Source: Neisseria sp. (GTDB lineage Bacteria; Pseudomonadota; Gammaproteobacteria; Burkholderiales; Neisseriaceae). From it: DNA of 64,000 nucleotides. Shown here piece after piece: positions 7,432 through 24,671 of this stretch. The stretch covers positions 24,159-88,158 of the forward strand of contig NZ_JAUMUI010000004.1 of NCBI RefSeq assembly GCF_030530745.1, read 5' to 3'. Every line of letters begins with the position of its first letter. Position 1 is the first letter of the stretch. The notes under the pieces are model-generated. The model was not told the origin of the DNA and did no database searches. It saw only the letters and a program-made list of their open reading frames with translations. The translations under genes were made by a program, and so were the position numbers.

Positions 7432-9615
7432 TTATTTTTTATCGGCTTTGCGTGTATAGGCGGCGTAATAACCGTAACCGCTGCGGCCTTCGCTGCGCAT
7501 ACCGTTGAGTATCACGCCGCTGACTTTGATGTTGCTCTGTTTCAGACGGCTTGTGCTGATGTCGAGCTCCCGTGCGGAAGTGGTGTTGTGCCGCACTACG
7601 AGCAAGGTGGTGCCCGCCTGCTGGCCGACAATGTTGGCATCGGTTACCGACAATACCGGCGGCGTGTCGATAACCACATAGTCGTAACGCTGGCGCGCGC
7701 GCGCCAGCAGGGTAGCGAAACGGCTGTCGAGCAGCAGTTCGGATGGGTTGTCGGGCAGGGGGCCGTGGCCGATAAAGCTCAGGTTGGGGATGTCGGTTTC
7801 CTGCACAGCCTGGCCGGGCGAGAGTTTGCCTTCAAGAATATCGGACAAGCCTTTTTCGGGGCAGGTGGAGAAAATTTCGTCGAGATAACCTTTGCGCATG
7901 TCGGCATCAATCAGCAGCACTTTTTTGCCCGACTGCGCCATGACGGTGGCCAGGTTGGCAGCCGCAAAAGATTTGCCCACATCGGGCGCGCTGCCGGTAA
8001 TCATCAGGATATTGTTTCTGGCGTCTATCATCGAAAAATAGATATTGGTGCGCAGGGCGCGCATTGCTTCAACCGCCGCATCGGTAGGTGCTTCCGTGGC
8101 CAGCAGGTATTTGCCGGAGCTGCTGCCTGCAAACGATTTCAGCTTGCTGCGCAGGGTGTCCCGCCGGTGCTGTGCTTTGGAGAGCGGAATAATCGCGGCG
8201 ACATTCATGCCGGCCGCTTCTATTTCTTCGGGTTTGGTAATGCCGCGGCGCATTGCCGAACGCAGCAGGAACCAGCCCGCGGCCAACATGCCCGCACTCA
8301 TGGCAGCAAGCAGGGTGATCACGGCTTTGCGCGGGGCGACGGGCTGTTCGGGCACGTCGGCATAATCGACAATCCACACATTGCCCTGTGTGCTGGCTTT
8401 CATGATGTTGAGTTCCTGCTGTTTGCCCAGCAGCTGGGTATAGGTGGTTTGGTTGGTTTCTACGTCGCGCGTCAGGCGGATAACCTCCTGCTGGGTGTTG
8501 GGCAGCTCGGCGATTTGCTGGTTGATACGGTTTTTGGCTTTTTCGAGCACGTCGAGTTTGTCGAGGACGGCTTTATACGAGGGGTGTTCTTTGGTATAGA
8601 GTTCGGCCAGTCCGGCTTCTTCGGTGCGCAGCTCGGTGATTTGGGTTTCGATGTTTACCAGGCTTTCGATGGCGCCTTTCGATTCGACCGGAATATCGAG
8701 CGAGCCGCTTTTTTTGCGGTATTCGTTCAGTTTGTTTTCGGCCTCCTGCAGGGTGGCTTTCAAACGCGGAAGTTCGTCGCTGATAAAGGCAAGCCCGCTG
8801 GCAGCAACCTGTACGTCGCGGTTGACTTTCTGGCTTACGTAGTTGTCGGCAATGCTGTTTAAGATTTTGGTGATTTCTTCGGCATCGGTGCCCTTATAGG
8901 CCAGGTTGATGACGGGGCTGGTTTTGCCCTTGCTCGAAACGGTCAGGTTTTGTTTGATGTTTTCTATTGCACTGAGCTTGGAATGTTTCACCAGGCTGAA
9001 ACGCTGGCCGCCCTCGGCCAGAATCTGGTTGACTTGGAGCGTGGTTTGGGCGCCCAGTTTCAACGGTTGGCCGACTTTGCCCTTGAGGGTGCGCCCGTCG
9101 GGCAGTTCGACGGTGTAAAGTTTGCTGCTTTGGGCGGTCAGTACGAAAGGTTCGTTCAGCCACTGCTTCTCAACTTCGAAAGTGTGGATTTTCAATTCGG
9201 GGTCGGTATCGCTGCTCAGGTTGTGAATCAGACGGCCGACAACGGGAAAGTATTTCGGGGTAACGGTTTGGGCAAGCTGCAGATCGTCGACGGTTTTGCC
9301 CAGCACCAGACGCGATTGCGGCAGTTCCAGCTCTGCTTCGAAAGTGAGGTTGCTGCTTTCGGGCATGAACAGGTTGCTGATTTCGGTGAGAATCTGGTTT
9401 TGTTTGGTTTCGATTTCCAGCATGGCGTCGGCGCGGTAGACGGGCGTGGCCGCAAGGCTGTAAAGGGCACCCAAAAAGCCGCCTGCCAAAACGGCAACGG
9501 CAATCGGATATTTATAGTTCAGCAGGTTGCGCAACTGCTGGCCGACATCGATTTCGCCGCCGCTGTTTTGCGGCTGCCGGGGGTATTGCGGGTATTGTGG
9601 GTATTGTTTTGCCAT
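7432..9615 (-). CDS. wzc: Polysaccharide co-polymerase / BY-kinase (Wzc-type tyrosine autokinase)
   Basis: Walker A GSAPDVGKSFAAANLA, DADMRKG, C-terminal Tyr cluster GYGYYAAYTR, two TM segments and a large periplasmic coiled-coil region. Start moved to MAKQYPQY (RBS AAGGA 8 nt upstream) rather than the ORF-track start at 9702. Confidence 0.85.
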   Translation of the reverse strand: MAKQYPQYPQYPRQPQNSGGEIDVGQQLRNLLNYKYPIAVAVLAGGFLGALYSLAATPVYRADAMLEIETKQNQILTEISNLFMPESSNLTFEAELELPQSRLVLGKTVDDLQLAQTVTPKYFPVVGRLIHNLSSDTDPELKIHTFEVEKQWLNEPFVLTAQSSKLYTVELPDGRTLKGKVGQPLKLGAQTTLQVNQILAEGGQRFSLVKHSKLSAIENIKQNLTVSSKGKTSPVINLAYKGTDAEEITKILNSIADNYVSQKVNRDVQVAASGLAFISDELPRLKATLQEAENKLNEYRKKSGSLDIPVESKGAIESLVNIETQITELRTEEAGLAELYTKEHPSYKAVLDKLDVLEKAKNRINQQIAELPNTQQEVIRLTRDVETNQTTYTQLLGKQQELNIMKASTQGNVWIVDYADVPEQPVAPRKAVITLLAAMSAGMLAAGWFLLRSAMRRGITKPEEIEAAGMNVAAIIPLSKAQHRRDTLRSKLKSFAGSSSGKYLLATEAPTDAAVEAMRALRTNIYFSMIDARNNILMITGSAPDVGKSFAAANLATVMAQSGKKVLLIDADMRKGYLDEIFSTCPEKGLSDILEGKLSPGQAVQETDIPNLSFIGHGPLPDNPSELLLDSRFATLLARARQRYDYVVIDTPPVLSVTDANIVGQQAGTTLLVVRHNTTSARELDISTSRLKQSNIKVSGVILNGMRSEGRSGYGYYAAYTRKADKK

Positions 9616-9671
9616 GTTTGGGAAATCCTTTTCATTGTTTTGGGCTTCGAAGCCCGTGATTATATTTTTTA

Positions 9672-10112
9672 TTAAGGCCGAACAGTCAGTTTGAATGCCC
9701 ACTGCTCGGCTGCTTCGTTTATTTTACGGTAAACCGCTTCGAAAACATCATCGGTTTGCCCGTAGGGGTCGGGTATGCCGGTTTGCGGCAGCCACTGGCC
9801 GAACAGCATGGTTTTGCTGCGGGCGCTGGGTTGAATGTCGGCCACGCCGTCGATATGCCACGGTTCCATGACTAAAATCAGGTCGGCCTCTTCACACATG
9901 GCCGCTGTCAGTTGGCGGGCAGTGTGGCCGGCTACGACGACACCGTGGCGCAGGGCGGTTCTGATGGCCTGCAGGTCGGCATCTTTTCCCGCCGGCGCCC
10001 TCAGCCCGGCCGACGAAACCTGCAGATGGGGCATTTTTTGCGACAGCAGCCGCTCGGCGGTGGGGGAACGGCAGATGTTGCCGACGCACACAATCAAAAT
10101 CTTTTGATACAT
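9672..10112 (-). CDS. wzb: Low-molecular-weight protein-tyrosine phosphatase (Wzb)
   Basis: ILIVCVGNICRSPTAERLL active-site CX5R(S/T) motif and DPY motif. Confidence 0.85.
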   Translation of the reverse strand: MYQKILIVCVGNICRSPTAERLLSQKMPHLQVSSAGLRAPAGKDADLQAIRTALRHGVVVAGHTARQLTAAMCEEADLILVMEPWHIDGVADIQPSARSKTMLFGQWLPQTGIPDPYGQTDDVFEAVYRKINEAAEQWAFKLTVRP

Positions 10113-10231
10113 CTTGCAACTGAAAGTCTGAATATGGCGGAAAGCTCCCCTCGGCAATACTGCGAACGCGGCGGCGGGGTTCCGTAAACGGAATATTGCC
10201 GCCTGCGGACAGGTTTTAACCTGCCGTTATA

Positions 10232-11368
10232 TCAGTTGCCGCCGAAAATGTTGTCGATATAGTAAATATTGCTGACCGACGCGGTAACCTGGGAAATGAC
10301 GCGGTTCCAACGGGCAACCGGCGCGGCGGTAACGTAAACCACATCGTCGGCACGCAGTTTGAAGCGGTTGGCCATGGCGTAGGCCGAGGCGTCTTTCAGG
10401 TTGAGCTGGTAAACGTGTATGGGTTTCTCGCGGTCGGACGGCATATTGCGGATAACGAATACGCCCGAAGCGTTGGCGGTTACCTGATTCATGCCGCCTG
10501 CGTTACCCAAGGCTTGGGTGAGGGTGAGGCCGTAGTTGCCCAAGGGCATGGAGGCCTGCCTGCCCACTTCGCCCATTACATGAATTCGGCTGTGTTCGTT
10601 AGTGGGCACGTAAATGATGTCTCCGCCGGAGAGCAGCAGGTTTTGCGACAAATCGCCGTGTTGGCGTATGTCTTGCAGCGAAATGGTGCGCTCTACGCCG
10701 TTTTGCGTCCATTTGATGTTGTTGGTGTCGGCATTGGCGGCGGTTCCCCCGGCCTGGTCGATGGCGTCGACCAAGGTGAGCGGCACGTTGGTCAGCGGGA
10801 GTTGGCCGGGTTTGCCTACCGCTCCGGAAACCGAAACGCGCTGCGAGCGGAACTCGGCCACGTTCACCGAAACCTGCGGGTTTTTGATATAGCGTTTCAG
10901 GCGGGCGGTGAGTATGGACTGCAGTTCGGGCAGGGTTTTGCCTCGCGCGTAAACTTTTCCTGCCAGCGGGTAGGCCAGATAGCCGGATTCGTCAACCCAT
11001 GCGCCGTTGCTTACCTGTTTGCTTTCGGGGTTGGTGCTGATGGGGTTGGGGGTGTTCAGGTCGGGGTGGTGCCAAACCAAGATGTTCAGCACGTCGCCGC
11101 TGCCGATACGGTAGCGGTAACCGGCTTTCTGGCGGTCGAGCGCGGGGTTGCTCAAGGCACGGCGCGGCGCTTCCTCCATGCTCATGAGCAGGCCGGGAGT
11201 AATCGGCCGGATTCTGATGTATTTGCTGATATTGGTATCGGCACGGCTTTCTCCCGGGCCGTAAGATACGGTTTTGCCGCGGGAAGGCAGGCCCGAACCG
11301 GGAACAACGGTGCAGCCCGCAAATGCGAGCATCGATAAGCTGATGATGGTAAATTTTTGAATATTCAC
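10232..11368 (-). CDS. wza: Polysaccharide export outer-membrane lipoprotein (Wza family)
   Basis: Lipobox LAFAGC, polysaccharide export (Poly_export) and SLBB-like regions; operon with wzb/wzc. Confidence 0.85.
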   Translation of the reverse strand: MNIQKFTIISLSMLAFAGCTVVPGSGLPSRGKTVSYGPGESRADTNISKYIRIRPITPGLLMSMEEAPRRALSNPALDRQKAGYRYRIGSGDVLNILVWHHPDLNTPNPISTNPESKQVSNGAWVDESGYLAYPLAGKVYARGKTLPELQSILTARLKRYIKNPQVSVNVAEFRSQRVSVSGAVGKPGQLPLTNVPLTLVDAIDQAGGTAANADTNNIKWTQNGVERTISLQDIRQHGDLSQNLLLSGGDIIYVPTNEHSRIHVMGEVGRQASMPLGNYGLTLTQALGNAGGMNQVTANASGVFVIRNMPSDREKPIHVYQLNLKDASAYAMANRFKLRADDVVYVTAAPVARWNRVISQVTASVSNIYYIDNIFGGN

Positions 11369-11425: not shown

Positions 11426-13330
11426 TCAGACACTGTGGCGGTTTTGCTGCCACACCAAATCGCAAATGCCGTCTTTGGGGGCGAAACCTGTCGGTGCTTC
11501 CAATAAGAGTTGTCTTAAAACGGTTTGGTTCATTTCGCCGCATGCCGAATCCATACGGTTAAGTATGTCGGATAATTCGTTCCACGGCAGCATTACTTCG
11601 CTGGCGGTCATAATGCGGGGATGAGTGGTCTTTTGAACCTCATCGCCGATTAACAATTCTTCATATAATTTTTCACCCGGGCGCAGGCCTGTGATTTTGA
11701 TTTCGATGTCGCCGTCGGGGTTTTCGGCATCTTTCACTTGCAGCCCGCTAAGGTGGATCATCTGTTTGGCCAGGTCGATGATTTTCACCGATTCGCCCAT
11801 GTCGAGCACGAATACGTCGCCGCCTTTGCCCATTGCTCCGGCCTGAATCACCAGCTGTGCCGCTTCGGGAATGGTCATGAAGTAGCGGGTGATGTCTTCA
11901 TGGGTGAGGGTGATGGGGCCGCCGGCGGCGATTTGTTTTTCAAACACGGGCACTACCGAGCCGGAAGAGCCCAGCACGTTGCCGAAGCGCACCATGCAGA
12001 AGCGGGTTTGCTGGCCGGGTTCGGCGGCCAGCGCCTGCAGGCAAAGCTCGGCCATGCGTTTGCTCGCGCCCATGGTGTTGGTGGGGCGCACGGCTTTGTC
12101 GGTGGAAATCAAAACAAAGGTTTCCACGCCTGCGTCTATGGCGGCCTGTGCGCAGAAGAGCGTGCCGTACACGTTGTTGCACACGCCTTCGATGGTGTTG
12201 AATTCAACCATCGGCACATGCTTGTAGGCGGCGGCGTGATATACGGTTTGCACGCCGTAGGCCTGCATGATGCTGAAAAGGCGGTTGCGGTGCTGCACCG
12301 AACCCAAAAGCGGCACGATTTCGATATTCATGCCCGAGGCCGTCTGAAACTCGTTGAGCTCTTTGTCGATGCTGTATAGCGAGAATTCCGACAATTCGAA
12401 CAGCAGCAGTTTGGCGGGGCGGTAGCGGATAATCTGGCGGCACAGCTCGGAGCCGATGGAGCCGCCCGCTCCGGTTACCAGCACCACTTTGCCCGTGATG
12501 TCCGCCCCCATCAGATCGGGGCAGGGGTCGACCGGATCGCGGCCGAGCAGGTCGATCACCGATACTTTTTTCAGCGAACTGATGCTGATTTTGCCGTCAA
12601 CCAAATCCTTCATGCCCGGAATGGCCAGCACTTCGCAGGGATAGGCCTCAAGGCGCTGGATAATCAGCTTGCGCCGCTCTTGGGATGCGCTGGGAATCGC
12701 CAGCAGGATTTTTTCCACGCCGTAGCGTTTGATTAAGTCTTCGATTTCAGACGGCCTGTAAACGGGCAGGTCGTAAATGGTGGTGCGCTGGATAGCGCTG
12801 TTGTCGTCTACAAAGGCCACGGCGTTGTATTCGTTTACCTGTTTGACGGCTTCGAGCAGCTGGCGGCCGGACTGCCCCGCGCCGTAGATAATCACCGGTG
12901 CCATCTGTTTGCGGTGGCTGCGGTCGGTGAGCACGGCTTTCAAAATGATGCGCGAACTGGTTACCAGCACCACCAGCATCAGAAAATACACTACCGGCAG
13001 TGCCAGCCGCAGGCGCTGTTCGAATACCAGCATGCTGAAGAAGAAAACCGCAGCCGACACTACGCAGCCCAAAACGGCGGTGCTGAGGATGCGGGTGCTC
13101 ACATAGCGGGTAACGGCGCGGTAGAGGCCCAGCCGCACAAACAGTAAGATGGTCAGCCCGGCGGTGGAGGCGAACGCCAGCCAGTTGGCAAAGCTACCCC
13201 ATTCGTTGAAATAGTTGGCCTTCAGGCTTTGGGCAAACCAAAAAGCCACAAAAATCACCAAGGTATCGTGGATAACGAAAAAGGTTTTTTTCACATTGCG
13301 GGGCAATGCAAGTAAGGTTTCCAAGTTCAT
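11426..13330 (-). CDS. Membrane-bound UDP-HexNAc 4,6-dehydratase (PglF/WbpM/CapD family)
   Basis: 4 N-terminal TM helices; Rossmann VLVTGAGGSIGSELCRQI; 634 aa, typical of PglF/WbpM. Confidence 0.85.
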   Translation of the reverse strand: MNLETLLALPRNVKKTFFVIHDTLVIFVAFWFAQSLKANYFNEWGSFANWLAFASTAGLTILLFVRLGLYRAVTRYVSTRILSTAVLGCVVSAAVFFFSMLVFEQRLRLALPVVYFLMLVVLVTSSRIILKAVLTDRSHRKQMAPVIIYGAGQSGRQLLEAVKQVNEYNAVAFVDDNSAIQRTTIYDLPVYRPSEIEDLIKRYGVEKILLAIPSASQERRKLIIQRLEAYPCEVLAIPGMKDLVDGKISISSLKKVSVIDLLGRDPVDPCPDLMGADITGKVVLVTGAGGSIGSELCRQIIRYRPAKLLLFELSEFSLYSIDKELNEFQTASGMNIEIVPLLGSVQHRNRLFSIMQAYGVQTVYHAAAYKHVPMVEFNTIEGVCNNVYGTLFCAQAAIDAGVETFVLISTDKAVRPTNTMGASKRMAELCLQALAAEPGQQTRFCMVRFGNVLGSSGSVVPVFEKQIAAGGPITLTHEDITRYFMTIPEAAQLVIQAGAMGKGGDVFVLDMGESVKIIDLAKQMIHLSGLQVKDAENPDGDIEIKITGLRPGEKLYEELLIGDEVQKTTHPRIMTASEVMLPWNELSDILNRMDSACGEMNQTVLRQLLLEAPTGFAPKDGICDLVWQQNRHSV

Positions 13331-13433: not shown

Positions 13434-14609
13434 TTATGCGGTTGCTTCTGCGAGCACTTCCTGTATGTTTCTGCAGCAAAACGCCATTTCTTCGGGCGTG
13501 ATGGTCGGGTGCACCAAAAACATGAGCGAGGTTTCGCCCAGCTCGACGGCGTTTTTCAGCCGCTCTTTGGGCCGCCACGGCGTGTTGTCGAAGGCTTTTT
13601 CCAAATATACCTCCGAGCAGCTGCCCTGATAGCAGGGCACTTTGCGTTCGGCCAAGGTTTCGACGATGCGGTCGCGGCTCCAGCCCGCTTTCAGGTTTTC
13701 CGGTTTCACAAACGCATAAAACTTATATTGCGCGTGTTCGATATAGTCGGGCACGTTTACCAAGCGGATGCAGGCAAACGGTTTGAGCACTGCTTCGAGC
13801 TGCGCGGCGTTGGCTTGGCGTTTGGCCGTCCAATCGCTCATGCGCTTGAGTTGGATGCGGCCGATAACCGCCTGCATCTCCGTCATGCGCCAGTTGGTGC
13901 CGAAGCTCTCGTGCAGCCAGCGGAAGCCGGGCGGGTGCTGGCGGTTATAAACAGCATCGTAGCTTTTGCCGTGGTCTTTATACGACCACATTTTCGACCA
14001 CAAATCTTTATCGTTGGTGGTAACCATGCCGCCCTCGCCGCCGGTGGTCATGATTTTGTCTTGGCAGAACGACCACGCGCCGACATGGCCGATGGAGCCC
14101 ACGGGTTTGCCTTTGTATTTGGAGCCGTGCGCTTGGGCGCAGTCTTCGATAACCCACAGTTTGTGTTGTTCGGCCAGCGCCATAATGCCGTCCATTTCGG
14201 CGGGCATGCCGGCCAGGTGAACCACGATGACGGCTTTGGTGTTCGGCGTTAAGGCCGCCTGAACGGTTTCGGCGGAAATGTTCTGGCTGTTCAAATCCAC
14301 ATCGGCAAACACGGGGTTGGCACCGGCGGTTACGATGGCGGAGGCGGAGGCGAGAAACGTGCGCGAGGTTACGATGACATCGTCGCCCGCGCCGATGCCC
14401 ATGGCTTTGAGGGCAACGTCGAGCGCCAGCGTGCCGTTGCCCAGCGCAACGGCGTATTGCGTGCCGGCGAATTCGGCAAATTCTTTTTCAAACTCGCGGC
14501 ATTCGGTGCCTGTCCAGTAGTTCACTTTGTTAGACAGTAAAACGCGCGAAACGGCGTCGGCCTCTTCTTGGGTGAAGCTGGGCCACGGGGCGATAGAAGT
14601 GTTAAGCAT
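13434..14609 (-). CDS. DegT/DnrJ/EryC1-family PLP aminotransferase (UDP-4-keto-6-deoxy-HexNAc 4-aminotransferase, PglE-like)
   Basis: Conserved GNGTLALDVALKAMGIGAGDDV and the PLP-lysine region. Start set at MLNTSIAPW (cat at 14607-14609), 2 nt after the upstream gene's stop. Confidence 0.85.
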   Translation of the reverse strand: MLNTSIAPWPSFTQEEADAVSRVLLSNKVNYWTGTECREFEKEFAEFAGTQYAVALGNGTLALDVALKAMGIGAGDDVIVTSRTFLASASAIVTAGANPVFADVDLNSQNISAETVQAALTPNTKAVIVVHLAGMPAEMDGIMALAEQHKLWVIEDCAQAHGSKYKGKPVGSIGHVGAWSFCQDKIMTTGGEGGMVTTNDKDLWSKMWSYKDHGKSYDAVYNRQHPPGFRWLHESFGTNWRMTEMQAVIGRIQLKRMSDWTAKRQANAAQLEAVLKPFACIRLVNVPDYIEHAQYKFYAFVKPENLKAGWSRDRIVETLAERKVPCYQGSCSEVYLEKAFDNTPWRPKERLKNAVELGETSLMFLVHPTITPEEMAFCCRNIQEVLAEATA

Positions 14610-15384
14610 CGGCTGATCCTGCAAAAAGGCTGGTGGAATCTTTGGGGGCGGTTTCTTCCAAAATACGGCGGTCGACCAAGGTGTATTTTTGGCCGTCGAT
14701 TTCGACGTAGGCGCCGTCGTAAGGGGGGAACCAGAATGCACGCACTTTTCTGGCCACGTCGTCGCCGGGGCGGATTTCTTTCATGGCTTCCATTTCGGCG
14801 CGGCTGGTGTATCTGCCGCCCTCATTGGGAAAAGCAGGCAGCTTGGTTTCGCTTTCAACCGCCTGCATAATCAGGCGTTTGGCAAAGGCTTCCAGCACCT
14901 GCATCGATTCGCGTTCCAGCGATTGCGCGGTGGCGGTGTCGGGATCCATCGCAAAGCGCACCACTTCGATTAAGTCGCCGGTATCGATGGAATCGTCGAT
15001 GTAGTGGGCGGAAATGCCCCATTCGGAGAGGCCGTCGAGAATCGCCAGATTATAGCCGCCCGTGCCTTTGTATTCGGGCAGGATGGCGGGGTGGAAGTTG
15101 ATGGTGCCGCGAGCGGGTACGGTTAAAAAGTCGTCGCGCAGTTTGCGCCAGTATAAAACCGAGATGCCCAAATCGTATTTCAGACGGCCTTCGCGCATGG
15201 CTTCGAGCGCGGTGTCGAAAGTGTAGAGAGGCAGCCCCAAACGTTTGGCCGCCGCCGTGGTGGGCGAACCTTGCAGGTGGCTGTCGGTTAACACGCCGAC
15301 AATTTCTATGCCGCTTTGGGAGGATAGAAATTCCAAGAGGACGGCGGAAACTTTTTTCCGGCCCATAAAAAGAATTTTGGTCAT
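14602..15384 (-). CDS. Formyl_trans_N-family protein (putative sugar N-formyltransferase)
   Basis: Formyltransferase motif NFHPAILPEYKG (cf. HxSLLPxxRG) and catalytic-Asp region ISAHYIDDSIDTGD; sits between the aminotransferase and the ATP-grasp gene. Confidence 0.6.
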   Translation of the reverse strand: MTKILFMGRKKVSAVLLEFLSSQSGIEIVGVLTDSHLQGSPTTAAAKRLGLPLYTFDTALEAMREGRLKYDLGISVLYWRKLRDDFLTVPARGTINFHPAILPEYKGTGGYNLAILDGLSEWGISAHYIDDSIDTGDLIEVVRFAMDPDTATAQSLERESMQVLEAFAKRLIMQAVESETKLPAFPNEGGRYTSRAEMEAMKEIRPGDDVARKVRAFWFPPYDGAYVEIDGQKYTLVDRRILEETAPKDSTSLFAGSADA

Positions 15385-15540
15385 TGCTTCATCCTTTTTG
15401 TTTGAAAGGTAGATTTAAAGTTTAGGTTTGAATTTTCAGGTTGGGACGCGCTGCCCCGGCATTTGTTTTCAGACGGCATGATGCGGTTCGGGTTTGTTTC
15501 GTTTTTTTTACCGGTAAGGCAGCATGCCGTTGTTGAGTGT

Positions 15541-16506
15541 TTATTTTTCGTGAACCAGCACTTTCGCGTCGTAGCGCAGCATAATCAGGTTGTTTTCCCA
15601 TTCGTCGAAAAACGGGATTTTTCCGCCGTAGAGGTATTCGCGTATCAGCCAGCCCGGATAGTTGCCGCCGGCGGCATAGGTGAGCGGGAAGCCGCCGCCG
15701 AAGCGCGGGTTGATTTCGATGCCGTAAACCGTGCTGCCTTTGCAGAAAAACTGGGCGGTGATGCAGCCGCGCGCGCCTTCGAGATGCGGCATTTTATCGG
15801 TCAGCAGCGTATAAAGGCCGTTGCGGCGGGTGGCGCCTTTGCTCACTTCGCCGCTGCGCACTTCCAAACGCTCGCGCGGCACGGCGCATTTCAGACGGCC
15901 TGAACGGTCGTAATACATATCAACGGTAAATTCGGTGAATTCGTTGGCGATGTCGATATACTGGCAGAAGATGATTTTCGGGTCTTTGAGTATGTCGTAA
16001 GACAAATCTTCGGCCGAGCGTATATATTTTGCGCCCAAACTGCGGCTGCCGTCGTAGGGTTTGGCAAAACAGGGAAAAGAAATGTTTTCGCGCTCGTAGA
16101 TTTCGGGTGTGGCAATGTCGCAGCGGGCGAACAGGCCTGCGGTGAAGCGTTTGTCGCGGCAGATGGTTACCAGCTCCGAGTCGGAAACCACAATGTGTAT
16201 GCCTGCTTCTTCAAAACGGCTGCGCGCGTCGGCGAGTTTTTGCAGCTCGGTGTCGATGGTGGGGATAATCAGCCCCACATTGTGCGCAAGCGCCAGATCG
16301 AAAACGCTGCCGATATAGTTTTCGGCAGAAATCGGCGGCACTTCGAAAGCGTTGTCGGCCACATGGCAGGCGGGCGACATAAGGGGGTTCAGATCGGCGG
16401 CAAACACCTTGATGCCGTCTGAAAACTTGGCGGCTTCGGTTTGGAAGTCCTGCACAAGCTCTACGCGGCGGCCGGCGGATAAAATGAGTATGTTATTTTT
16501 TTTCAT
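15541..16506 (-). CDS. ATP-grasp domain enzyme (probable amino-sugar N-acyl ligase, cf. ATP-grasp domain of meningococcal PglB2)
   Basis: ATP-grasp fold signatures (ILILSAGRRVELVQ, E..G..ITAQFF, YGIEINPRFGGG). Overlaps the PGT gene's start by 14 nt. Confidence 0.7.
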   Translation of the reverse strand: MKKNNILILSAGRRVELVQDFQTEAAKFSDGIKVFAADLNPLMSPACHVADNAFEVPPISAENYIGSVFDLALAHNVGLIIPTIDTELQKLADARSRFEEAGIHIVVSDSELVTICRDKRFTAGLFARCDIATPEIYERENISFPCFAKPYDGSRSLGAKYIRSAEDLSYDILKDPKIIFCQYIDIANEFTEFTVDMYYDRSGRLKCAVPRERLEVRSGEVSKGATRRNGLYTLLTDKMPHLEGARGCITAQFFCKGSTVYGIEINPRFGGGFPLTYAAGGNYPGWLIREYLYGGKIPFFDEWENNLIMLRYDAKVLVHEK

Positions 16507-17110
16507 GATCTTGGTTCCCGGTAAAGTAAGGCATGGTGGCTTCTCCTTCGGCAGAAATTCCTTCCCGCACGAACACTTTTTTAATAGTTAAGAATAATAT
16601 TTTGATATCGAGCCAAAAACTGTGGTTGTCGATATACCAAACGTCGTGGGCGAATTTTTCGTCCCATGAGAGTGCATTGCGGCCGTTAACCTGCGCCCAG
16701 CCGGTTACGCCCGGCTTCATCTCGTGGCGGCGGTTTTGGAAATCGTTATAAAGCGGCAGGTAGTGCATCAAGAGCGGGCGGGGGCCGACCAGGCTCATTT
16801 CGCCTTTCAAAACGTTCCACAGCTCGGGCAGCTCGTCGAGGCTGGTGGCGCGCAGTTTTTTGCCGAACGGGGTGAGCCGCTCGCTGTCGGGCAGCGGGTT
16901 GCCTTGTGCATCAACCGCATCGCGCATGGAGCGGAACTTAATCATTTTGAAGGGCTTGCCGTTCAGCCCGGGGCGCTCCTGCGTGAAAAACACGGGCGAA
17001 CCCAAGTTTTTTTTAATCAGATAAATCAAAATTAAGAACACGGGCGAGAGAATAATCAAGCCGGCGGCTGAGGCAATAATGTCGAACAGGCGTTTCAATA
17101 ATTTATTCAT
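16493..17110 (-). CDS. Small monotopic phosphoglycosyl transferase (bacterial sugar transferase; PglC/WbaP-C-terminal family) - initiating enzyme
   Basis: N-terminal re-entrant helix LFDIIASAAGLIILSPVFLILIYLI, PGLNGKPFKMIKFRSM, DELPQL-like DELPELWNVLKGEMSLVGPRP. Confidence 0.85.
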   Translation of the reverse strand: MNKLLKRLFDIIASAAGLIILSPVFLILIYLIKKNLGSPVFFTQERPGLNGKPFKMIKFRSMRDAVDAQGNPLPDSERLTPFGKKLRATSLDELPELWNVLKGEMSLVGPRPLLMHYLPLYNDFQNRRHEMKPGVTGWAQVNGRNALSWDEKFAHDVWYIDNHSFWLDIKILFLTIKKVFVREGISAEGEATMPYFTGNQDHEKK

Positions 17111-18276
17111 TGTCCGAGTCTTTCAATTAAACCGACGATTTTCTGATAGGCCACATCGCGTTTGAAGCGGCGCACGATTTCTTCACTTTGCACGGGGTCG
17201 TTTTTGCGCGCCAAAATATCGCGCGCGGCGCGTACGAAATCGGCCACATTGCCTGATTGGTAGTTGGCGTGGGGCAGCAGTTTCAGCACGTCGGCCACTT
17301 CGTCGTTTACTTGGCTGTTGAGTATCGGCTTTTGCAGCGCCATGTAGTCGGACAGTTTGTTGGTTATCGACTGCATGGCATACGAATGAATCGGGTTCAC
17401 CGAAATATCGCAGCCTTTGGCCACCGCCATCATTTCGCTATACGGGATATAGCCGTAAAACTTGATGGTATCGTTTTCATATTGTTTGAGTTTTTCCAAA
17501 TCGGGGCCGCCGCCCATGATGTGCAGCTCCACGTTTGCGCCTTCGTTCAAAAGCTGCCGCACGCCCCGGCACACGGTTTCCACGTCGTAGCTGAAGCTGA
17601 GGGTGCCGAGGTAGAAAAAGCGGGTTTTATCGTCGCCGAAATCTTGGGCGGGTGCGGCTTCGAGTTTGTCGAAATCCGCGCCGATATACACCACTTCGCC
17701 CGGCGCGTTCGGATTGGCTTCCTTTGCGCGGTCGAGATAGGTTTGCGACACTGCCGCCAAACCGTCGGCATGGCGGTAGGCGGCGTTGGCGCGCGAGGCG
17801 AAAGGCAGCAGGTTGTGCGGGATTTTCTTCAGCATCGGAATCACGGAAGAGAAGGATTCCGGCCACACGTCCTGCACATCGATAATCAGTTTGTAGCCCA
17901 AACGCGCTTTGTGTCTGCCCAACAGGATATTGGTGGCAATCAGCGGATAAGCCGAAAACACCACATCGGCAAAACCCGGCTGCTGCGCGGCAAGCCACGT
18001 TTCGAAATTTTTCACAAACACATGATGGCTTTTCACGCGGCCCAGCGACACGTTTTTCCGATAGCCGCTTTCTTTGAGCAGCAGCACTTTCAGACGACCT
18101 TGCGAAGCGGCTGCGGCATCTTCGGGCCGTCTGAACGATTTGTCGTAATGTTTGAAATTGCTGGTAATCAGCAAAACATCATGCTTTTGCGCCAACAGTT
18201 CGGCCAGATACCAAAAGCGGTTGAAGTGCGGCTCGCCCGGCAGCGAGCAATAGGGGGCGACAATGGTAATCTTCAT
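17107..18276 (-). CDS. GT4-family glycosyltransferase
   Basis: C-terminal GT-B region with E-x7-E-like segment; start set at MKITIVAPY. Confidence 0.7.
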   Translation of the reverse strand: MKITIVAPYCSLPGEPHFNRFWYLAELLAQKHDVLLITSNFKHYDKSFRRPEDAAAASQGRLKVLLLKESGYRKNVSLGRVKSHHVFVKNFETWLAAQQPGFADVVFSAYPLIATNILLGRHKARLGYKLIIDVQDVWPESFSSVIPMLKKIPHNLLPFASRANAAYRHADGLAAVSQTYLDRAKEANPNAPGEVVYIGADFDKLEAAPAQDFGDDKTRFFYLGTLSFSYDVETVCRGVRQLLNEGANVELHIMGGGPDLEKLKQYENDTIKFYGYIPYSEMMAVAKGCDISVNPIHSYAMQSITNKLSDYMALQKPILNSQVNDEVADVLKLLPHANYQSGNVADFVRAARDILARKNDPVQSEEIVRRFKRDVAYQKIVGLIERLGQ

Positions 18277-18287
18277 TTCAGACGGCC

Positions 18288-19358
18288 TTACATTGCATAC
18301 GCATCCATGGTGGTGCGGTAGATTTCGTCGTCGGAGCACAGTCGGGTAACGCGATCATGCAGGGCTTTGCCCATGCTGCGGCGCAGGGCGGGATCGGCAG
18401 CCAGTTTTTCAACGGCACCGGCAAAGGCTGCTTTGTTTTCAAAAGGAATGCAGAAACCGGTTTCGCCGTCGACGACCATTTCTGAAATACCCGCCGCATC
18501 GTATGACACTACAGGGGTTTCATACAGCCCGGCCTCGAGGATATTGTTGCCCACGCCCGCGCCGTGGTCGCCGATTAAAACGGGTGTGTTGAGCAGGATG
18601 TCGACTTCTTGGAAATAAGCGCCCAAGTCGCGCACGCCGCCGAGAAAGCGCACACGGTCTTCCAAACCCAAATGCCGCACCTGCTCTTTGAGCCTGTCGG
18701 CTTCTTCCCCGATTCCAGCCACCGAAAGTTTCACCGGCAAGCCGCGGTCGGCCAGGGTTTTGACCATGTCGACGGCCAGATGCACGGCACGCACGGTGTC
18801 GAGGCGCGAAAGTGTGCCGAGCATCACATAATCTTTGGCTGTTTTTTCCCGGATTTCTGCCGTTTTTTCGGGCAGTGCGTTATAAGTGTAGGCCGCACGC
18901 GCTGCGGGAAAACCGTGGCGTATCAGTTTGGCGCGCTCGTGGCGGCAGTTGGCGATGATATACACGCCGAGTTTGTCGAACAGTTTGGCGATTTTCGGAT
19001 AAGTTTCGGGGTCGAGGCCGCGGGCGTGGTAAAACACTTTGGTTTCGGGCGAAACGATTTTGGCGGCCACGGCGCAGGCGGGCACGATGCGCGCCATCTG
19101 GCAGTGCACGATGTCGGGCCGCTCTTTGGCCAGCATTTTTGCATAGGCGAGCGTGCCTTTCAGATAGCCGCTTTTACCCCGGTAAAAATCAATCTCATAC
19201 CACTTCATCCCCGCCGCTTCGGCTTCTGCAACCAAGGGGCCGTCTGAAGATGCCAGAACCACGGTGTGGCCGTGCCCGAGCAGCAGCTTTCCCAAGCGGA
19301 AGGCCGCGTGTTCGGTGCCGCCCAGGCCGCTCATTGAAGTTGTGATGATAATTTTCAT
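18288..19358 (-). CDS. GT4-family glycosyltransferase (paralog A of tandem pair)
   Basis: MKIIITTSMSGLGGTEHA...; GT-B fold; ~60% identical to the next gene. Confidence 0.8.
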   Translation of the reverse strand: MKIIITTSMSGLGGTEHAAFRLGKLLLGHGHTVVLASSDGPLVAEAEAAGMKWYEIDFYRGKSGYLKGTLAYAKMLAKERPDIVHCQMARIVPACAVAAKIVSPETKVFYHARGLDPETYPKIAKLFDKLGVYIIANCRHERAKLIRHGFPAARAAYTYNALPEKTAEIREKTAKDYVMLGTLSRLDTVRAVHLAVDMVKTLADRGLPVKLSVAGIGEEADRLKEQVRHLGLEDRVRFLGGVRDLGAYFQEVDILLNTPVLIGDHGAGVGNNILEAGLYETPVVSYDAAGISEMVVDGETGFCIPFENKAAFAGAVEKLAADPALRRSMGKALHDRVTRLCSDDEIYRTTMDAYAM

Positions 19359-19468: not shown

Positions 19469-20539
19469 CTACATGCCGTAGGCCGCCATGGTTGTGCGGT
19501 AGATTTCTTCGTCGGAACACAGTGCGTTAACGTGTTTGTTTAACGCTTTGCCCAACTGCTGCCGCAAGGGTTTGTCGTAAACCAGCTTTTCCACAGCATC
19601 GGCAAAACCCTGTTCGTCGCCGAGCTTGAAGCAGTAGCCCGTTTCGCCCTGTATCACCATTTCGGTGATGCCGCCCATGTTGTAGGTAACCACAGGGGTT
19701 TCATACAGCCCCGCCTCCAACACATTGTTGCCCACGCCCGCGCAGCTGTCGCCGGGGCAGCGGGGGTTGTTCAGCAAAATATCCACTTCTTTGAAATATC
19801 CGGTCAGATTGCGCACGCCGCCGAGAAAAGTTACTTTGTCGGACACGCCCAAACGATCGGCCTGCGCTTTGAGTTTGTCCATATCTTCGCCCACGCCCGC
19901 GATGTTGAGGCGGACGGGCAGGTTGCGGTCGAGCAGTATTTTGAAAATATCCAGCGTTTGATCCACCGCGCGCAGGTAGTCCAGCCGCGACAGGGTGCCC
20001 AGCGTTACATAATCTTTTTCAGCCTTTTCGGGCACATAATCCACTTTGTGCAGGGCGTTGTAAGTATAGGTGATGCGGTTTGCGGGAAAGCCGTGGCGGA
20101 TTAATTTGTCGCGTTCGTGTTTGCAGTTGGCGATGATATACACGCCCAGCCTGCGGAAAACTTTTACCACTTTCGGATAGGTTTCCGCCACCAGGCCGCG
20201 TGCGTGCCAAAACACCTTGGTGTGCGGCGACGCGAGTTTGGCGGCGGCGGCGCAGGCGGGTACGATGCGTGCCATCTGGCAGTGGACGATATCGGGTTTT
20301 TCCCGCCGCATCAGTTTGAAAAACGCCCCCATACTTTTTAAATATCCCGATATGCCGCCGCCGTAGAAATCGATTTCATGCCATTTCATACCTGCTTCGC
20401 GGCAGTCGCCTACCAACGGGCCGTCTGAAGAGGCCAGCAGCACTTCGTGTCCTTTGCCGCACAGCAAACGTCCCAAACGGTAGGTGGCGTTTTCGGTTCC
20501 GCCCAAACCGCTCATCGAGGTGGCCAAAACAATCTTCAT
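19469..20539 (-). CDS. GT4-family glycosyltransferase (paralog B of tandem pair)
   Basis: MKIVLATSMSGLGGTENA...; collinear with 18288..19358. Confidence 0.8.
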   Translation of the reverse strand: MKIVLATSMSGLGGTENATYRLGRLLCGKGHEVLLASSDGPLVGDCREAGMKWHEIDFYGGGISGYLKSMGAFFKLMRREKPDIVHCQMARIVPACAAAAKLASPHTKVFWHARGLVAETYPKVVKVFRRLGVYIIANCKHERDKLIRHGFPANRITYTYNALHKVDYVPEKAEKDYVTLGTLSRLDYLRAVDQTLDIFKILLDRNLPVRLNIAGVGEDMDKLKAQADRLGVSDKVTFLGGVRNLTGYFKEVDILLNNPRCPGDSCAGVGNNVLEAGLYETPVVTYNMGGITEMVIQGETGYCFKLGDEQGFADAVEKLVYDKPLRQQLGKALNKHVNALCSDEEIYRTTMAAYGM

Positions 20540-20542
20540 GTA

Positions 20543-21838
20543 TCAATAACTTTTATATCTGTTTGCGGAATAAGTGTTTTCAGACGGCCTGTAACTGAAA
20601 AAATAAACAGCCAGCATAAAGCAGGGAAGCCAGATAAACGGCAGCCGCAGAATGGAAGAAGGAATAAACCCGCCGATCAGAAACACACCCATGCACACCA
20701 GTGCCAGCATGCGTATTTTGCCGTCGATTTTTCCCGAGGCGGCAAACAGGGCGGCATAGCCCGCCGCATAGAGCAGAAAAGAGAGCAGCGACACAATGCC
20801 GAAGCCCAGGTAAAGCTCGATGATGAAACTGTGCGGGTTTTCAAAACCCAGGCTGCTGCCCAAATGGCCGCCGAAAAATTCGCCGAAGTTTTTCGGGCCG
20901 TAACCGGTGAACAGCGCGGGGGTGTGGTTCCAGAAGTGGTTGTAGATTTCTTGGCGCGACGAAACCGAATTGTCGCTGCCGAAATCGTATAAAAAGAGGT
21001 AAACGCGGGTGGAAAAACGCTCTAAAAATTCATTGCTGTTTAATGAAAGCAGAAAATCCTGCACCGCATAAGGCGGAATCATGGCCGCAAACAGGCCGAG
21101 CAGCAAAACGGCAAACACCGTGGCCAAGCCGTTTTTGCGGTAGAGCAGTGTGAGCAGCGCCACGGCGGCATAGCAGGCAATGGCCGTGCGCGACACGCTG
21201 GCGAGAATCACCAGGCCGAGCAGGGCAAACAAGCCCCAGCCTGCAAGCACTTCTTTGCGGCTGCGGCCGAGCCGGGTGAAAAACACCAATACGGCAGGGG
21301 TGAGGCATACGGCGGTGGTGGCGAGGTTGTTGGGGTTGAAAAACAACCCTTTCACCGCACCCGCTTCCAGTGCCAGCTCTTCGATGGCGGTAACAAACTG
21401 AACACCCGCACCGATTTCGATAAAGGGAGGAATGCAGACAAATGCCGCAAAAAACAGAATCAGCCGCTGGATAAAGCCCAAAGGGTCGGGCGAGCGCGAA
21501 ACAATCTGATAGAGCAGGTAGAAAAAGCACGGCAGCGACAGAAAAAACATCAGGTCGACAAACTGCGAACCGGTGAGCGGCGAAATGACCAAGTGCAGCG
21601 CACTCCAGCCGGCCATAACCGCCAGACTGCCCGCCAGCACGGCAATGCCTGTGGGAAAGCGTTTGCTTTCGAGCAGGGCGGCAAACAGCGTGCAGATGAT
21701 GAACAGAATGGTCAGGAGGTTGTCGACACGCTGCACGCCGAGAAAATACGATATTGCAGGCCCCAGCATATAGGCGCCCAGCATGCCGTAAACCAGCAGC
21801 GTATAGATACGGGTAGTTTTAATTTTCATTGCGCTCAC
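20543..21838 (-). CDS. wzy: Polytopic membrane protein, O-antigen/EPS repeat-unit polymerase (Wzy/O-antigen ligase family)
   Basis: ~10-11 predicted TM helices with a large loop; sits between GT genes in a wzx/wzy-type locus. Confidence 0.65.
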   Translation of the reverse strand: MSAMKIKTTRIYTLLVYGMLGAYMLGPAISYFLGVQRVDNLLTILFIICTLFAALLESKRFPTGIAVLAGSLAVMAGWSALHLVISPLTGSQFVDLMFFLSLPCFFYLLYQIVSRSPDPLGFIQRLILFFAAFVCIPPFIEIGAGVQFVTAIEELALEAGAVKGLFFNPNNLATTAVCLTPAVLVFFTRLGRSRKEVLAGWGLFALLGLVILASVSRTAIACYAAVALLTLLYRKNGLATVFAVLLLGLFAAMIPPYAVQDFLLSLNSNEFLERFSTRVYLFLYDFGSDNSVSSRQEIYNHFWNHTPALFTGYGPKNFGEFFGGHLGSSLGFENPHSFIIELYLGFGIVSLLSFLLYAAGYAALFAASGKIDGKIRMLALVCMGVFLIGGFIPSSILRLPFIWLPCFMLAVYFFSYRPSENTYSANRYKSY

Positions 21839-23055: not shown

Positions 23056-24474
23056 TTATCTTTTCAGACGGCCTTTCGCTTTCGCCGTTAAAGCGCCGAT
23101 GGCGGCGCGGTGTTTCCGATACAGCGCGGCCAATGCGGCCAGCCAGAACAGGGCGAAAATATAATAATTGCCGCTGTTGCCGGAATAAGTGTAAACCAGG
23201 CATACCGCCAGGCAGGCAAAGGTGGTGCCGTAGAGTTTGGCGCGCGGCAGCGGCAGCCACAAGCGGGCCGAAGCCTCGCTTTTCAACACCGAAAACACCC
23301 AGAAAGCCACGGCGGTGGACATGGCCGCACCTTTCGCGCCCAAGGCGGGCACCAAAACATATAAAAGCGCGGCGTTCACCAGCAGGGCGGTTATCGAAAA
23401 CATCGTAATCAGCCAGGTTTTTTTGCTCACGTTGATGCCGATGCCGGTTACTTCGGTTAAGGTGTAGAGCAGCGGAAACAGCATGCTCGAGAGCAGGATA
23501 AACTGCACCGGCGCATATTTTTCAGGCAGTATCCAAGTAACCAGCGGCGAAAAAATCCCCACAATGCAGATGAGTGCGGCGATCAGGTCGGTCATCGATT
23601 CGGTGATACCGCCGATTTTATCCAAGTTGGTGTTTTCTTTCACCCATCTGAACACCATCGGTGCCCAGATAACCGAAAAAATATTCTGGAAAATCAGCGC
23701 AATCGCGCCGAAACTCACCGCCATCGAATACACGCCCAGCTCCGACAGCCCCGCCAGCTCTTTCAGCAGAAAACGGTCTATCGAGGTAAAGCCCCAATAG
23801 GCCAGCCCGCCCAAAGCCAGCGGCACGCCGTAGCGCAGGCTTTCTTTCAGCAGCGGAGCCGACAGCGGTGCGGCGGCGGCGGCTTTCAGCTCGCGGCGCG
23901 TTTGCAGGGCCAAAATGCCCACCGTTACCGCCTGCGACAACGCATAGGCCAGCACCAGCGTCAGGGTGTCGGTGGGCAGGGCGGCGGCCACATAAACCAG
24001 CACAAACACCAAAATCAGCACTTTCGGCGTGAGCTGGCTGATGGAAAAGGCGAAGGCTTTTTCCTGCATGCGCAGAATCAGCGCGAAATAGCGCGACAGC
24101 ACCGAGCTGGTAAAAAACACCAAACACAGCAAACCCAAAACGCTGCTGCTGATTTCGAGCACCGCTTCAGACGGCCACGACAGCCGCCATACCGCCACGC
24201 CGCCGCAAAACAGCAGGGTCAGCAGCAGCGGCGGCACAATCACGGCTTTAAACAGGGCGGCTTTGTTTTCGGCGGCGTGGTATTCGCGGATATACGACTG
24301 GTCCAAACCCAAACCGGCCAGCGTGAGGGTGAGTGCCGACACGGTTTGCAGCAGCACGATACGGCCGATGTCTTCGGCAGGGTAATACCAAGAAATCAGC
24401 GGCAGGGAAACGATTCCGATGGCGGCGCTGCCTACGGGGCCGAGCGCGTAGCCCAATAATTTTCGTGCATTCAT
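23056..24474 (-). CDS. wzx: Wzx-type flippase (polysaccharide biosynthesis protein, MOP superfamily)
   Basis: 12-14 TM helices; start set at MNARKLLGYALGP. Confidence 0.75.
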   Translation of the reverse strand: MNARKLLGYALGPVGSAAIGIVSLPLISWYYPAEDIGRIVLLQTVSALTLTLAGLGLDQSYIREYHAAENKAALFKAVIVPPLLLTLLFCGGVAVWRLSWPSEAVLEISSSVLGLLCLVFFTSSVLSRYFALILRMQEKAFAFSISQLTPKVLILVFVLVYVAAALPTDTLTLVLAYALSQAVTVGILALQTRRELKAAAAAPLSAPLLKESLRYGVPLALGGLAYWGFTSIDRFLLKELAGLSELGVYSMAVSFGAIALIFQNIFSVIWAPMVFRWVKENTNLDKIGGITESMTDLIAALICIVGIFSPLVTWILPEKYAPVQFILLSSMLFPLLYTLTEVTGIGINVSKKTWLITMFSITALLVNAALLYVLVPALGAKGAAMSTAVAFWVFSVLKSEASARLWLPLPRAKLYGTTFACLAVCLVYTYSGNSGNYYIFALFWLAALAALYRKHRAAIGALTAKAKGRLKR

Positions 24475-24510
24475 AAAATAACAGAAGCGTAGTCGGGCAA
24501 CGCTTCTCAG

Positions 24511-24671
24511 GTAAAACAAAATAAAAACGATACGGCGGTCTCGCCTTAGCTCGAAGAGAACGATTTTGTAAACTGCTGAAACAGCAACAGAATCGGTTCC
24601 GTACTATTTGTTTGTACTGTCTGCGGCTCCGCCGCCTTGTCTCGTTTTTATTTTGTTTTACTGCAAAAGTT
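24511..24671. mobile_element. Correia-like repeat-enclosed element with variant 20-bp TIRs (gtaaaacaaaataaaaacga ... tcgtttttattttgttttac)
   Basis: Internal sequence tacggcggtctcgccttagctcgaagagaacgattttgtaa...atcggttccgtactatttgtttgtactgtctgcggc matches the Correia core; perfect terminal inverted repeats. Confidence 0.6.

Follow-up and report, generated by a model that had tools for sequence, protein, structure and literature searches.

A probable split ('8A-type') pglB2 allele with overlapping transferase and ATP-grasp genes in the pgl core locus of a commensal or animal Neisseria

pglB2 and its closest described relatives

PglB2 of Neisseria combines a phosphoglycosyl transferase module with an ATP-grasp module and makes the sugar GATDH (glyceramido-acetamido trideoxyhexose) (PMC11130364). 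The gene is known in fused and in split forms: PMC5320596 speaks of a pglB2 fusion mediated by a poly-A tract, and PMC4569582 states that split pglB2 maintains its function, the split meningococcal alleles being reported to give two separate polypeptides and GATDH, in both cases with reference to Viburiene et al. 2013. For N. meningitidis strain 8013, pglB2 is entered under a pair of locus tags, NMV_1981 and NMV_1982 (PMC10425976). The present paper deals with the same two modules in a 64-kb stretch of DNA from Neisseria sp. (contig NZ_JAUMUI010000004.1; "the window" means this whole stretch hereafter), where they are two complete, translationally overlapping genes and not one fusion. The locus is very probably a split, that is, '8A-type', neisserial pglB2 allele, and its host, a Neisseria that is commensal or from an animal, carries it in the pgl core locus and is of the AG-DUS type, named after a dialect of the DNA uptake sequence (DUS).

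The nearest described counterpart is the split pglB2 of N. meningitidis, as in strain 8013, LIM707 and the complete genome CP016677, which has the same modules in the same order, the same ATGAAAAAAAATAA junction with a 14-nucleotide (nt) overlap, and the same place between pglH and pglC/pglD; compared with the window, its transferase is 86-89% and its ATP-grasp ligase 72% identical. Near ribD, CP016677 carries in order pglF, pglG, an insertion sequence, a pglH remnant, the transferase gene (205 amino acids, aa), the ATP-grasp gene (324 aa), a gene for a HAD-type hydrolase, pglC and pglD. The two loci differ, however, in that the meningococcal cassette continues with the HAD gene ('ORF8') and has no formyltransferase-like gene, whereas the window is the reverse on both counts, and in that the window has extra GT4 glycosyltransferase genes, a Wzy_C gene and a downstream Wza-Wzb-Wzc set. 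The fused form ('7A', 521-525 aa, represented by the proteins P0037 and P0028 and by the N. flavescens loci L009 and L010) is collinear with the two window proteins over the full length; its two modules are joined precisely at the A tract, where one adenine fewer gives a single polypeptide. A reading of the same DNA made from the sequence alone had started from the premise that meningococcal pglB2 is simply fused, which would make a split unusual. This premise did not hold, as is clear from the identical A8 split of CP016677, the two locus tags of strain 8013 (PMC10425976) and the functional split pglB2 mentioned in PMC4569582; the split is an already described allele type and the usual state across the genus.

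Other systems are related more loosely. The PglB of N. gonorrhoeae and N. meningitidis, a fusion of transferase and acetyltransferase, and the separately encoded PglC and PglD of Campylobacter have the same transferase module and share the logic of N-acylating a UDP-4-amino sugar before its transfer to undecaprenyl phosphate. Their acylating module, however, is an acetyl-CoA-dependent acetyltransferase of the left-handed beta-helix type that leads to diNAcBac (di-N-acetylbacillosamine), unlike the ATP-grasp ligase of the window. In the UDP-yelosamine pathway of Bacillus cereus (PMC11626204), an ATP-grasp enzyme N-acylating a UDP-amino sugar is found beside a separate gene for a small monotopic phosphoglycosyl transferase, but the acid is 2-oxoglutarate, the organism and the glycan are different, and the B. 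cereus ATP-grasp enzyme was not detected as a close homologue in the searches.

The overlapping gene pair and its junction

The two genes were claimed in the sequence-only reading to be separate open reading frames (ORFs) in different frames, each with its own start codon and overlapping by 14 nt, and the ORF listing of the window and the junction sequence agree with this to the nucleotide (Table 1). Both start with ATG. The transferase matches Pfam Bac_transf (E 6e-67) and, over its full length, the Campylobacter diNAcBac-1-phosphate transferase PglC, a stand-alone protein of likewise 205 aa (PDB 8g1n, E 1e-68); it is 89% identical to the transferase of the N. meningitidis locus L081. Its residues 1-204 align to residues 1-204 of the fused 525-aa PglB2 P0037 with 86% identity, and residues 2-320 of the ATP-grasp protein align to residues 203-523 of P0037 with 71% identity, so that the two window proteins are collinear and abutting on the fused one. 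The proposed likeness to PglB2 is therefore specific, including that to the C-terminal domain, and extends to the order of the modules and to the junction.

The ATP-grasp protein in addition has Pfam matches to PylC-like_N (3e-23), ATPgrasp_Ter (8e-12) and ATP-grasp_3, scores 384.9 bits against NF009405, the cut-off of which is 390, and matches over the full length the structure of a stand-alone ATP-grasp protein of 331 aa (PDB 2pn1, E 3e-35). In an alignment of 111 homologues it retains all 98 of the columns with at least 95% conservation. It is 72% identical over 100% of its length to the stand-alone N. meningitidis ATP-grasp protein P0030, which is found on 130 contigs, and exactly the same protein is present in NCBI (P0001) as a stand-alone 'ATP-grasp domain-containing protein [Neisseria sp.]'. 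Members of the family with 45-57% identity are distributed in Bacteroidota, Chitinophagales, Pirellulales, Verrucomicrobiales, Cupriavidus, Ralstonia and others.

On the minus strand, the junction reads GAT CAT GAA AAA AAA TAA in the frame of the transferase and ATG AAA AAA AAT AAC in that of the ATP-grasp ligase. The overlap is made up of the ATP-grasp start codon, a run of eight adenines (A8; T8 on the plus strand) and the transferase stop codon. Such a run is error-prone for some sequencing chemistries and for replication slippage, the loss of one A restores a fusion of 522 aa, and fused A7 alleles exist naturally, all of which would suit the explanation that a properly fused pglB2 has been split by a recent frameshift, or only seems split through a sequencing error in the homopolymer, with one or both ORFs non-functional or artefactual. 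This explanation is extremely improbable. Four other assemblies from different sequencing runs, 100%, 99.9%, 99.87% and 99.5% identical to the window, all have the A8 junction, and in the two of them that cover the transferase gene in full, both genes are called in the same way; one of the five A8 assemblies differs at 18 positions, and the junction is identical in the complete genome CP016677. Moreover, both ORFs are of full length and fully conserved, and the split allele is reported to be functional in PMC4569582.

Table 1. Position of the pgl features discussed in the window
Feature	Coordinates	Strand	Size	Remarks
Wzc	7432..9702	-		downstream of pglD
Wzb	9672..10157	-		downstream of pglD
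Wza	10232..11368	-		directly downstream of pglD
PglD-type membrane-associated UDP-GlcNAc 4,6-dehydratase	11426..13330	-	634 aa	Pfam Polysacc_synt_2, E 5e-128
PglC-type DegT aminotransferase	13434..14609	-	391 aa	NCBIfam PseC, WecE and other sugar aminotransferase models
Formyltransferase-like gene	14602..15384	-	260 aa	Pfam Formyl_trans_N, E 4e-17
Spacer	15385..15540	-	156 nt	between ATP-grasp and formyltransferase-like genes; replaces the HAD gene (about 680 nt) of relatives
Stand-alone ATP-grasp carboxylate-amine ligase	15541..16506	-	321 aa	equals the C-terminal module of PglB2
Overlap ATGAAAAAAAATAA	16493..16506	-	14 nt	transferase/ATP-grasp
A8 homopolymer	16496..16503	-	8 nt	inside the overlap
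Small monotopic phosphoglycosyl transferase	16493..17110	-	205 aa	equals the N-terminal module of PglB/PglB2, and Campylobacter PglC
GT4 glycosyltransferase, pglH-like	17107..18276	-	389 aa in L083	Pfam Glycos_transf_1; directly upstream of the transferase, coupled

Further evidence comes from a survey of 36 junctions that could be read, taken from 34 Neisseria loci, a Bergeriella locus and the window; 33 of them are split with the same 14-nt overlap. The uninterrupted A8 type ATGAAAAAAAATAA was found 14 times, including the window, N. musculi and the subflava group, and the interrupted type ATGCGAAAAAATAA 16 times, in the mucosa/sicca group and others. Further interrupted types, ATGATGAAAAATAA in N. 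dentiae and ATGAAGAAAAATAA in N. perflava, and one without any A tract, ATGACGAACCCTAA in Bergeriella denitrificans, occur once each. The geometry of the overlap is kept even where slippage is impossible, and the junctions of the 17 species representatives with interrupted tracts and of Bergeriella with no A tract cannot be slippage artefacts. A7 with a single fused ORF was seen at two junctions only, in the N. flavescens loci L009 and L010, and a fused protein from the database maps to a short contig (L082) that has A7 in the same position. In the subflava/flavescens group, A7 (L009, L010) is found beside A8 (L032, L006).

Beyond Neisseria, in the loci fetched from distant phyla, the transferase directly upstream is separate and has its own stop codon in 19 of the 19 adjacent pairs, which argues that the unfused arrangement is ancestral. 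By these comparisons, the unfused state is the ancestral and predominant one and the fusion a derived minority state reached via the loss of one A. Two alternatives had been left side by side in the sequence-only reading, an ancestral unfused state and a frameshift-split fusion; the survey and the outgroup pairs favour the first, and the retention of the 14-nt overlap in species with an interrupted A tract or none speaks against the second. Its caveat that the overlap might be a sequencing error can be dropped, as independent assemblies reproduce the A8 junction.

A candidate for a second kind of fusion, the 521-aa protein P0015, was rejected: its sequence reads through out of frame from another A run within the transferase gene, comes from a single metagenome contig and is a probable error or mutant. 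As a separate observation, two records of the survey, L020 (titled N. meningitidis 1273_NMEN) and L026 (N. lactamica 919_NLAC), have a locus of the mucosa/sicca type with the interrupted ATGCGAAAAAATAA junction, a Wzy_C gene and the formyltransferase-like gene; L020 also has Wza-Wzc, and the contig of L026 ends before that region. These features and this junction are absent from the genuine N. meningitidis locus L081, and both records are probably mislabelled commensals.

The consequences of a change in tract length were derived by in-silico editing of the A8 run in the overlap. A8 gives the two ORFs of 205 and 321 aa; A7 gives one fused ORF of 522 aa with the junction ...DHEKNNILIL..., and A10 one of 523 aa; A6 or A9 cuts the ATP-grasp protein to 3-4 aa and gives the transferase a short altered tail. 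Both modules are thus kept in two of the three frames. Viburiene et al. (2013) reportedly described natural alleles with 7 or 8 As, of which 7A leads to one multidomain protein and 8A to two single-domain proteins, both supporting glycosylation.

These outcomes raise the question of a contingency switch between a two-protein state (A8), a fused state (A7, A10) and an ATP-grasp-off state (A6, A9), by which enzyme stoichiometry or channelling would be altered or glycosylation turned off. The three outcomes follow directly from the sequence, A7 and A8 co-occur in the subflava/flavescens group, pglB2 has been called phase variable (PMC10425976), and there is a second A8 run inside the transferase gene. 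Nevertheless, A8 is short for high-frequency slippage, the five near-identical assemblies show no variation in tract length, neither an A6 nor an A9 allele is present among the 36 junctions, and about half of the species have interrupted, locked tracts. In addition, both common tract states are reported to be functional, so a switch would be mostly silent in phenotype. A contingency switch is accordingly quite unlikely here, and a high-frequency switch role of the A8 tract is possible but unsupported.

The second A8 run lies at 17007..17014 on the minus strand, within the codons for L-I-K-K-N-L of the transferase; in relatives, R-K interrupts the run. A slip at this site would knock out the initiating transferase.

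The 4-N-acyl group of the sugar

For a split pglB2 allele of this kind, the following pathway can be proposed from homology and the literature. The PglD-type dehydratase and the PglC-type aminotransferase would convert UDP-GlcNAc to UDP-2-acetamido-4-amino-2,4,6-trideoxyhexose (that is, UDP-4-amino-4,6-dideoxy-GlcNAc), and the ATP-grasp ligase would activate a small carboxylic acid as an acyl-phosphate and join it to the 4-amino group. By homology, the acid may be glycerate or phosphoglycerate, giving GATDH; its identity is the weakest step of the scheme. The 205-aa monotopic transferase would then load undecaprenyl phosphate with the phospho-sugar and thereby prime the O-linked glycan. Expression of the ATP-grasp ligase would most likely occur by translational coupling, because its ATG is placed 11 nt upstream of the transferase stop. 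A promoter and terminator scan of positions 14400..17400 neither supports nor excludes an internal promoter for the ATP-grasp gene: its counts were like those of shuffled sequence, and it showed nothing of note between the genes. Similarly, an Rfam scan of the whole window gave no RNA family, and no known frameshift or riboswitch element is evident at the junction.

Three observations weigh against parts of this scheme. The Shine-Dalgarno-like GGGA is about 11 nt from the ATP-grasp ATG, a marginal spacing for the presumed coupling; the HAD gene, the usual partner of the ATP-grasp gene, is missing, so that the acyl group is perhaps not glyceroyl; and a gene resembling those of 4-N-formyltransferases is present, which also goes against glyceroyl as the acyl group.

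A HAD-type hydrolase gene follows the ATP-grasp gene in 35 of 37 loci from Neisseria and in 41 of 43 from distant phyla. The two genes are direct neighbours in all 35 of these Neisseria loci and in most of the distant ones; in five distant loci, the HAD gene lies about 1 kb downstream. In the window, the place of the HAD gene is taken by the 156-nt spacer, which holds an AT-DUS at 15468..15479 and, at 15502..15509, one more A8 run. The similarity to N. dentiae and N. musculi breaks off at the stop codon of the ATP-grasp gene and sets in again about 45 nt ahead of the formyltransferase-like gene. No HAD match was found by tblastn anywhere in the 64-kb window, nor was a HAD remnant found in the spacer. 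The HAD-less form is also present in a metagenome-assembled genome of N. dentiae (L002) and in those three sister assemblies whose sequence continues beyond the ATP-grasp gene (L083-L085).

The near-universal pairing of the ATP-grasp and HAD genes suggests two steps, the ligation of a phosphorylated acid and the subsequent removal of its phosphate. A model for such a pairing is found in the HS:2 capsule of Campylobacter jejuni, where the ATP-grasp amide ligase Cj1438C acts with Cj1435, a phosphatase that removes the phosphate (PMC11800379). The polarity of Cj1438C is reversed, however, in that a sugar carboxylate is joined to a phosphorylated amine, and the enzyme is TupA-like and not homologous at the sequence level tested; moreover, the phosphatase partner is present in C. 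jejuni but missing in the window. Alternatively, the HAD enzyme could supply glycerate. Literature searches on glyceramido/ATP-grasp and on GATDH/phosphoglycerate found nothing on the chemistry or on the HAD partner.

The product of the formyltransferase-like gene is probably a nucleotide-sugar 4-N-formyltransferase. Its best solved relative is the GDP-perosamine 4-N-formyltransferase WbkC of Brucella (5vys, E 5e-17), and the N-x-H and DTGD motifs are kept as judged by eye. Such an enzyme could compete with the ATP-grasp ligase for the same 4-amino group. Most commensal loci have the gene; N. meningitidis L081 and six other loci do not. For the locus of N. oralis, the genes named in the S2 figure legend of PMC6959607 include 'O-antigen ligase like', 'HAD hydrolase' and 'formyl transferase', with no functions assigned to them.

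With the HAD gene lost and the formyltransferase-like gene kept, the 4-N-acyl group of this strain is therefore uncertain. The cassette might no longer make the glyceramido sugar at all, the 4-amino group carrying instead a formyl group, an undephosphorylated phosphoglyceroyl group or another acid. Evidence in this direction is the clean absence of the otherwise almost universally ATP-grasp-linked HAD gene in the window, L002 and L083-L085, the sugar 4-N-formyltransferase nature of the best solved relative, and the C. jejuni precedent of an ATP-grasp amide ligase working on a phosphorylated substrate before a dedicated phosphatase (PMC11800379). On the other hand, the ATP-grasp ligase is 89% identical to that of the HAD-containing N. 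dentiae and has kept all conserved columns, and the substrate pocket is probably unchanged. The formyltransferase-like gene is also present in the surveyed N. oralis and N. mucosa loci, and the type strains of these species are reported to make GATDH-based glycans with plain GATDH, for which reporter ions of m/z 275.1 and 257.1 are given (PMC6959607). Furthermore, a housekeeping phosphatase, or a HAD gene beyond the 64-kb window, could substitute for the missing partner. Loss of the glyceramido sugar is possible but rather unlikely.

The surrounding locus and its meaning for the genus

The locus is the neisserial pgl core locus. On the minus strand, it begins with ribD, followed by genes for a UDP-sugar dehydrogenase, a GFO/MocA oxidoreductase, a DAO-family protein and a DegT aminotransferase, the block from the dehydrogenase to the aminotransferase being of the di-N-acetyl-hexuronate type. 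It continues with a Wzx-type flippase, a GT4 enzyme, a Wzy_C protein, three GT4 genes, the transferase, the ATP-grasp ligase and the formyltransferase-like gene, and ends with the pglC-type DegT aminotransferase, the pglD-type 4,6-dehydratase, Wza, Wzb and Wzc. This order agrees with that of N. meningitidis L081 and of at least 30 commensal loci. In its 64 kb, the window has the 10-mer DNA uptake sequence 80 times, with 57 copies that belong to the AG-DUS dialect; among species representatives, N. dentiae (89-90%) and N. musculi (86%) are closest to it.

The pglH-like GT4 gene, the stop of which shares 4 nt (ATGA) with the transferase ATG, is 83% identical to the N. meningitidis pglH remnant. 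Upstream of it, two 356-aa GT4 genes in tandem (18288..19358 and 19469..20539, minus strand) both match the single pglG-like gene of most Neisseria loci; they are an apparent tandem duplication, also present in N. oralis L008. The aminotransferase is 80% identical to the N. meningitidis pglC region and the dehydratase 72% identical to N. meningitidis pglD. For the aminotransferase, the mechanical ORF (13434..14741, minus strand) has 435 aa, a GTG start and a 140-nt overlap with the formyltransferase-like gene, versus 391 aa and an 8-nt overlap in the 100%-identical contig L083, the start of which corresponds to window position 14609. The start at 14609 is the more likely one, and the GTG at 14741 is probably too far upstream.

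Almost every commensal Neisseria locus that was fetched has Wza-Wzb-Wzc directly after pglD, as in the window; N. meningitidis and Bergeriella do not. Inside the pgl locus, at 20543..21838 and 23056..24519, are further members of the export set, a 431-aa Wzy_C protein and Wzx, which together with Wza-Wzb-Wzc make up a full set for Wzy-dependent polysaccharide export around the pgl core. The pgl glycan might also be polymerised and exported: because Wzx, Wzy_C and Wza-Wzb-Wzc surround the pgl core, the unit linked to undecaprenyl diphosphate may feed a Wzy-dependent polymer. A bolder combination would be that the HAD-less cassette makes a reducing-end sugar other than GATDH (a 4-formamido or phospho-glyceramido trideoxyhexose), that its lipid-linked unit also feeds such a polymer, and that the A8 run is a three-state switch (split, fused, off); taken jointly, this is unlikely.

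The split itself adds little, since split and fused alleles linked to 8A and 7A have been described and both are reported to be functional. The survey does correct the textbook picture: among the species representatives that bear the cassette, separate overlapping genes are usual, and a bifunctional PglB2 fusion is exceptional (2 of 36 junctions). In addition, the cassette of transferase, ATP-grasp, HAD and aminotransferase genes is widespread and unfused in Bacteroidota and other phyla. The residual interest is in the HAD-less, formyltransferase-containing variant and its Wzy/Wza context, which are outside the claim of the sequence-only reading. The points of interest are what roles the HAD partner and the formyltransferase-like gene have in forming the 4-N-acyl group, what a natural HAD-less strain produces, and whether commensal Neisseria with pgl loci flanked by Wza-Wzb-Wzc also make a polymerised surface polysaccharide.

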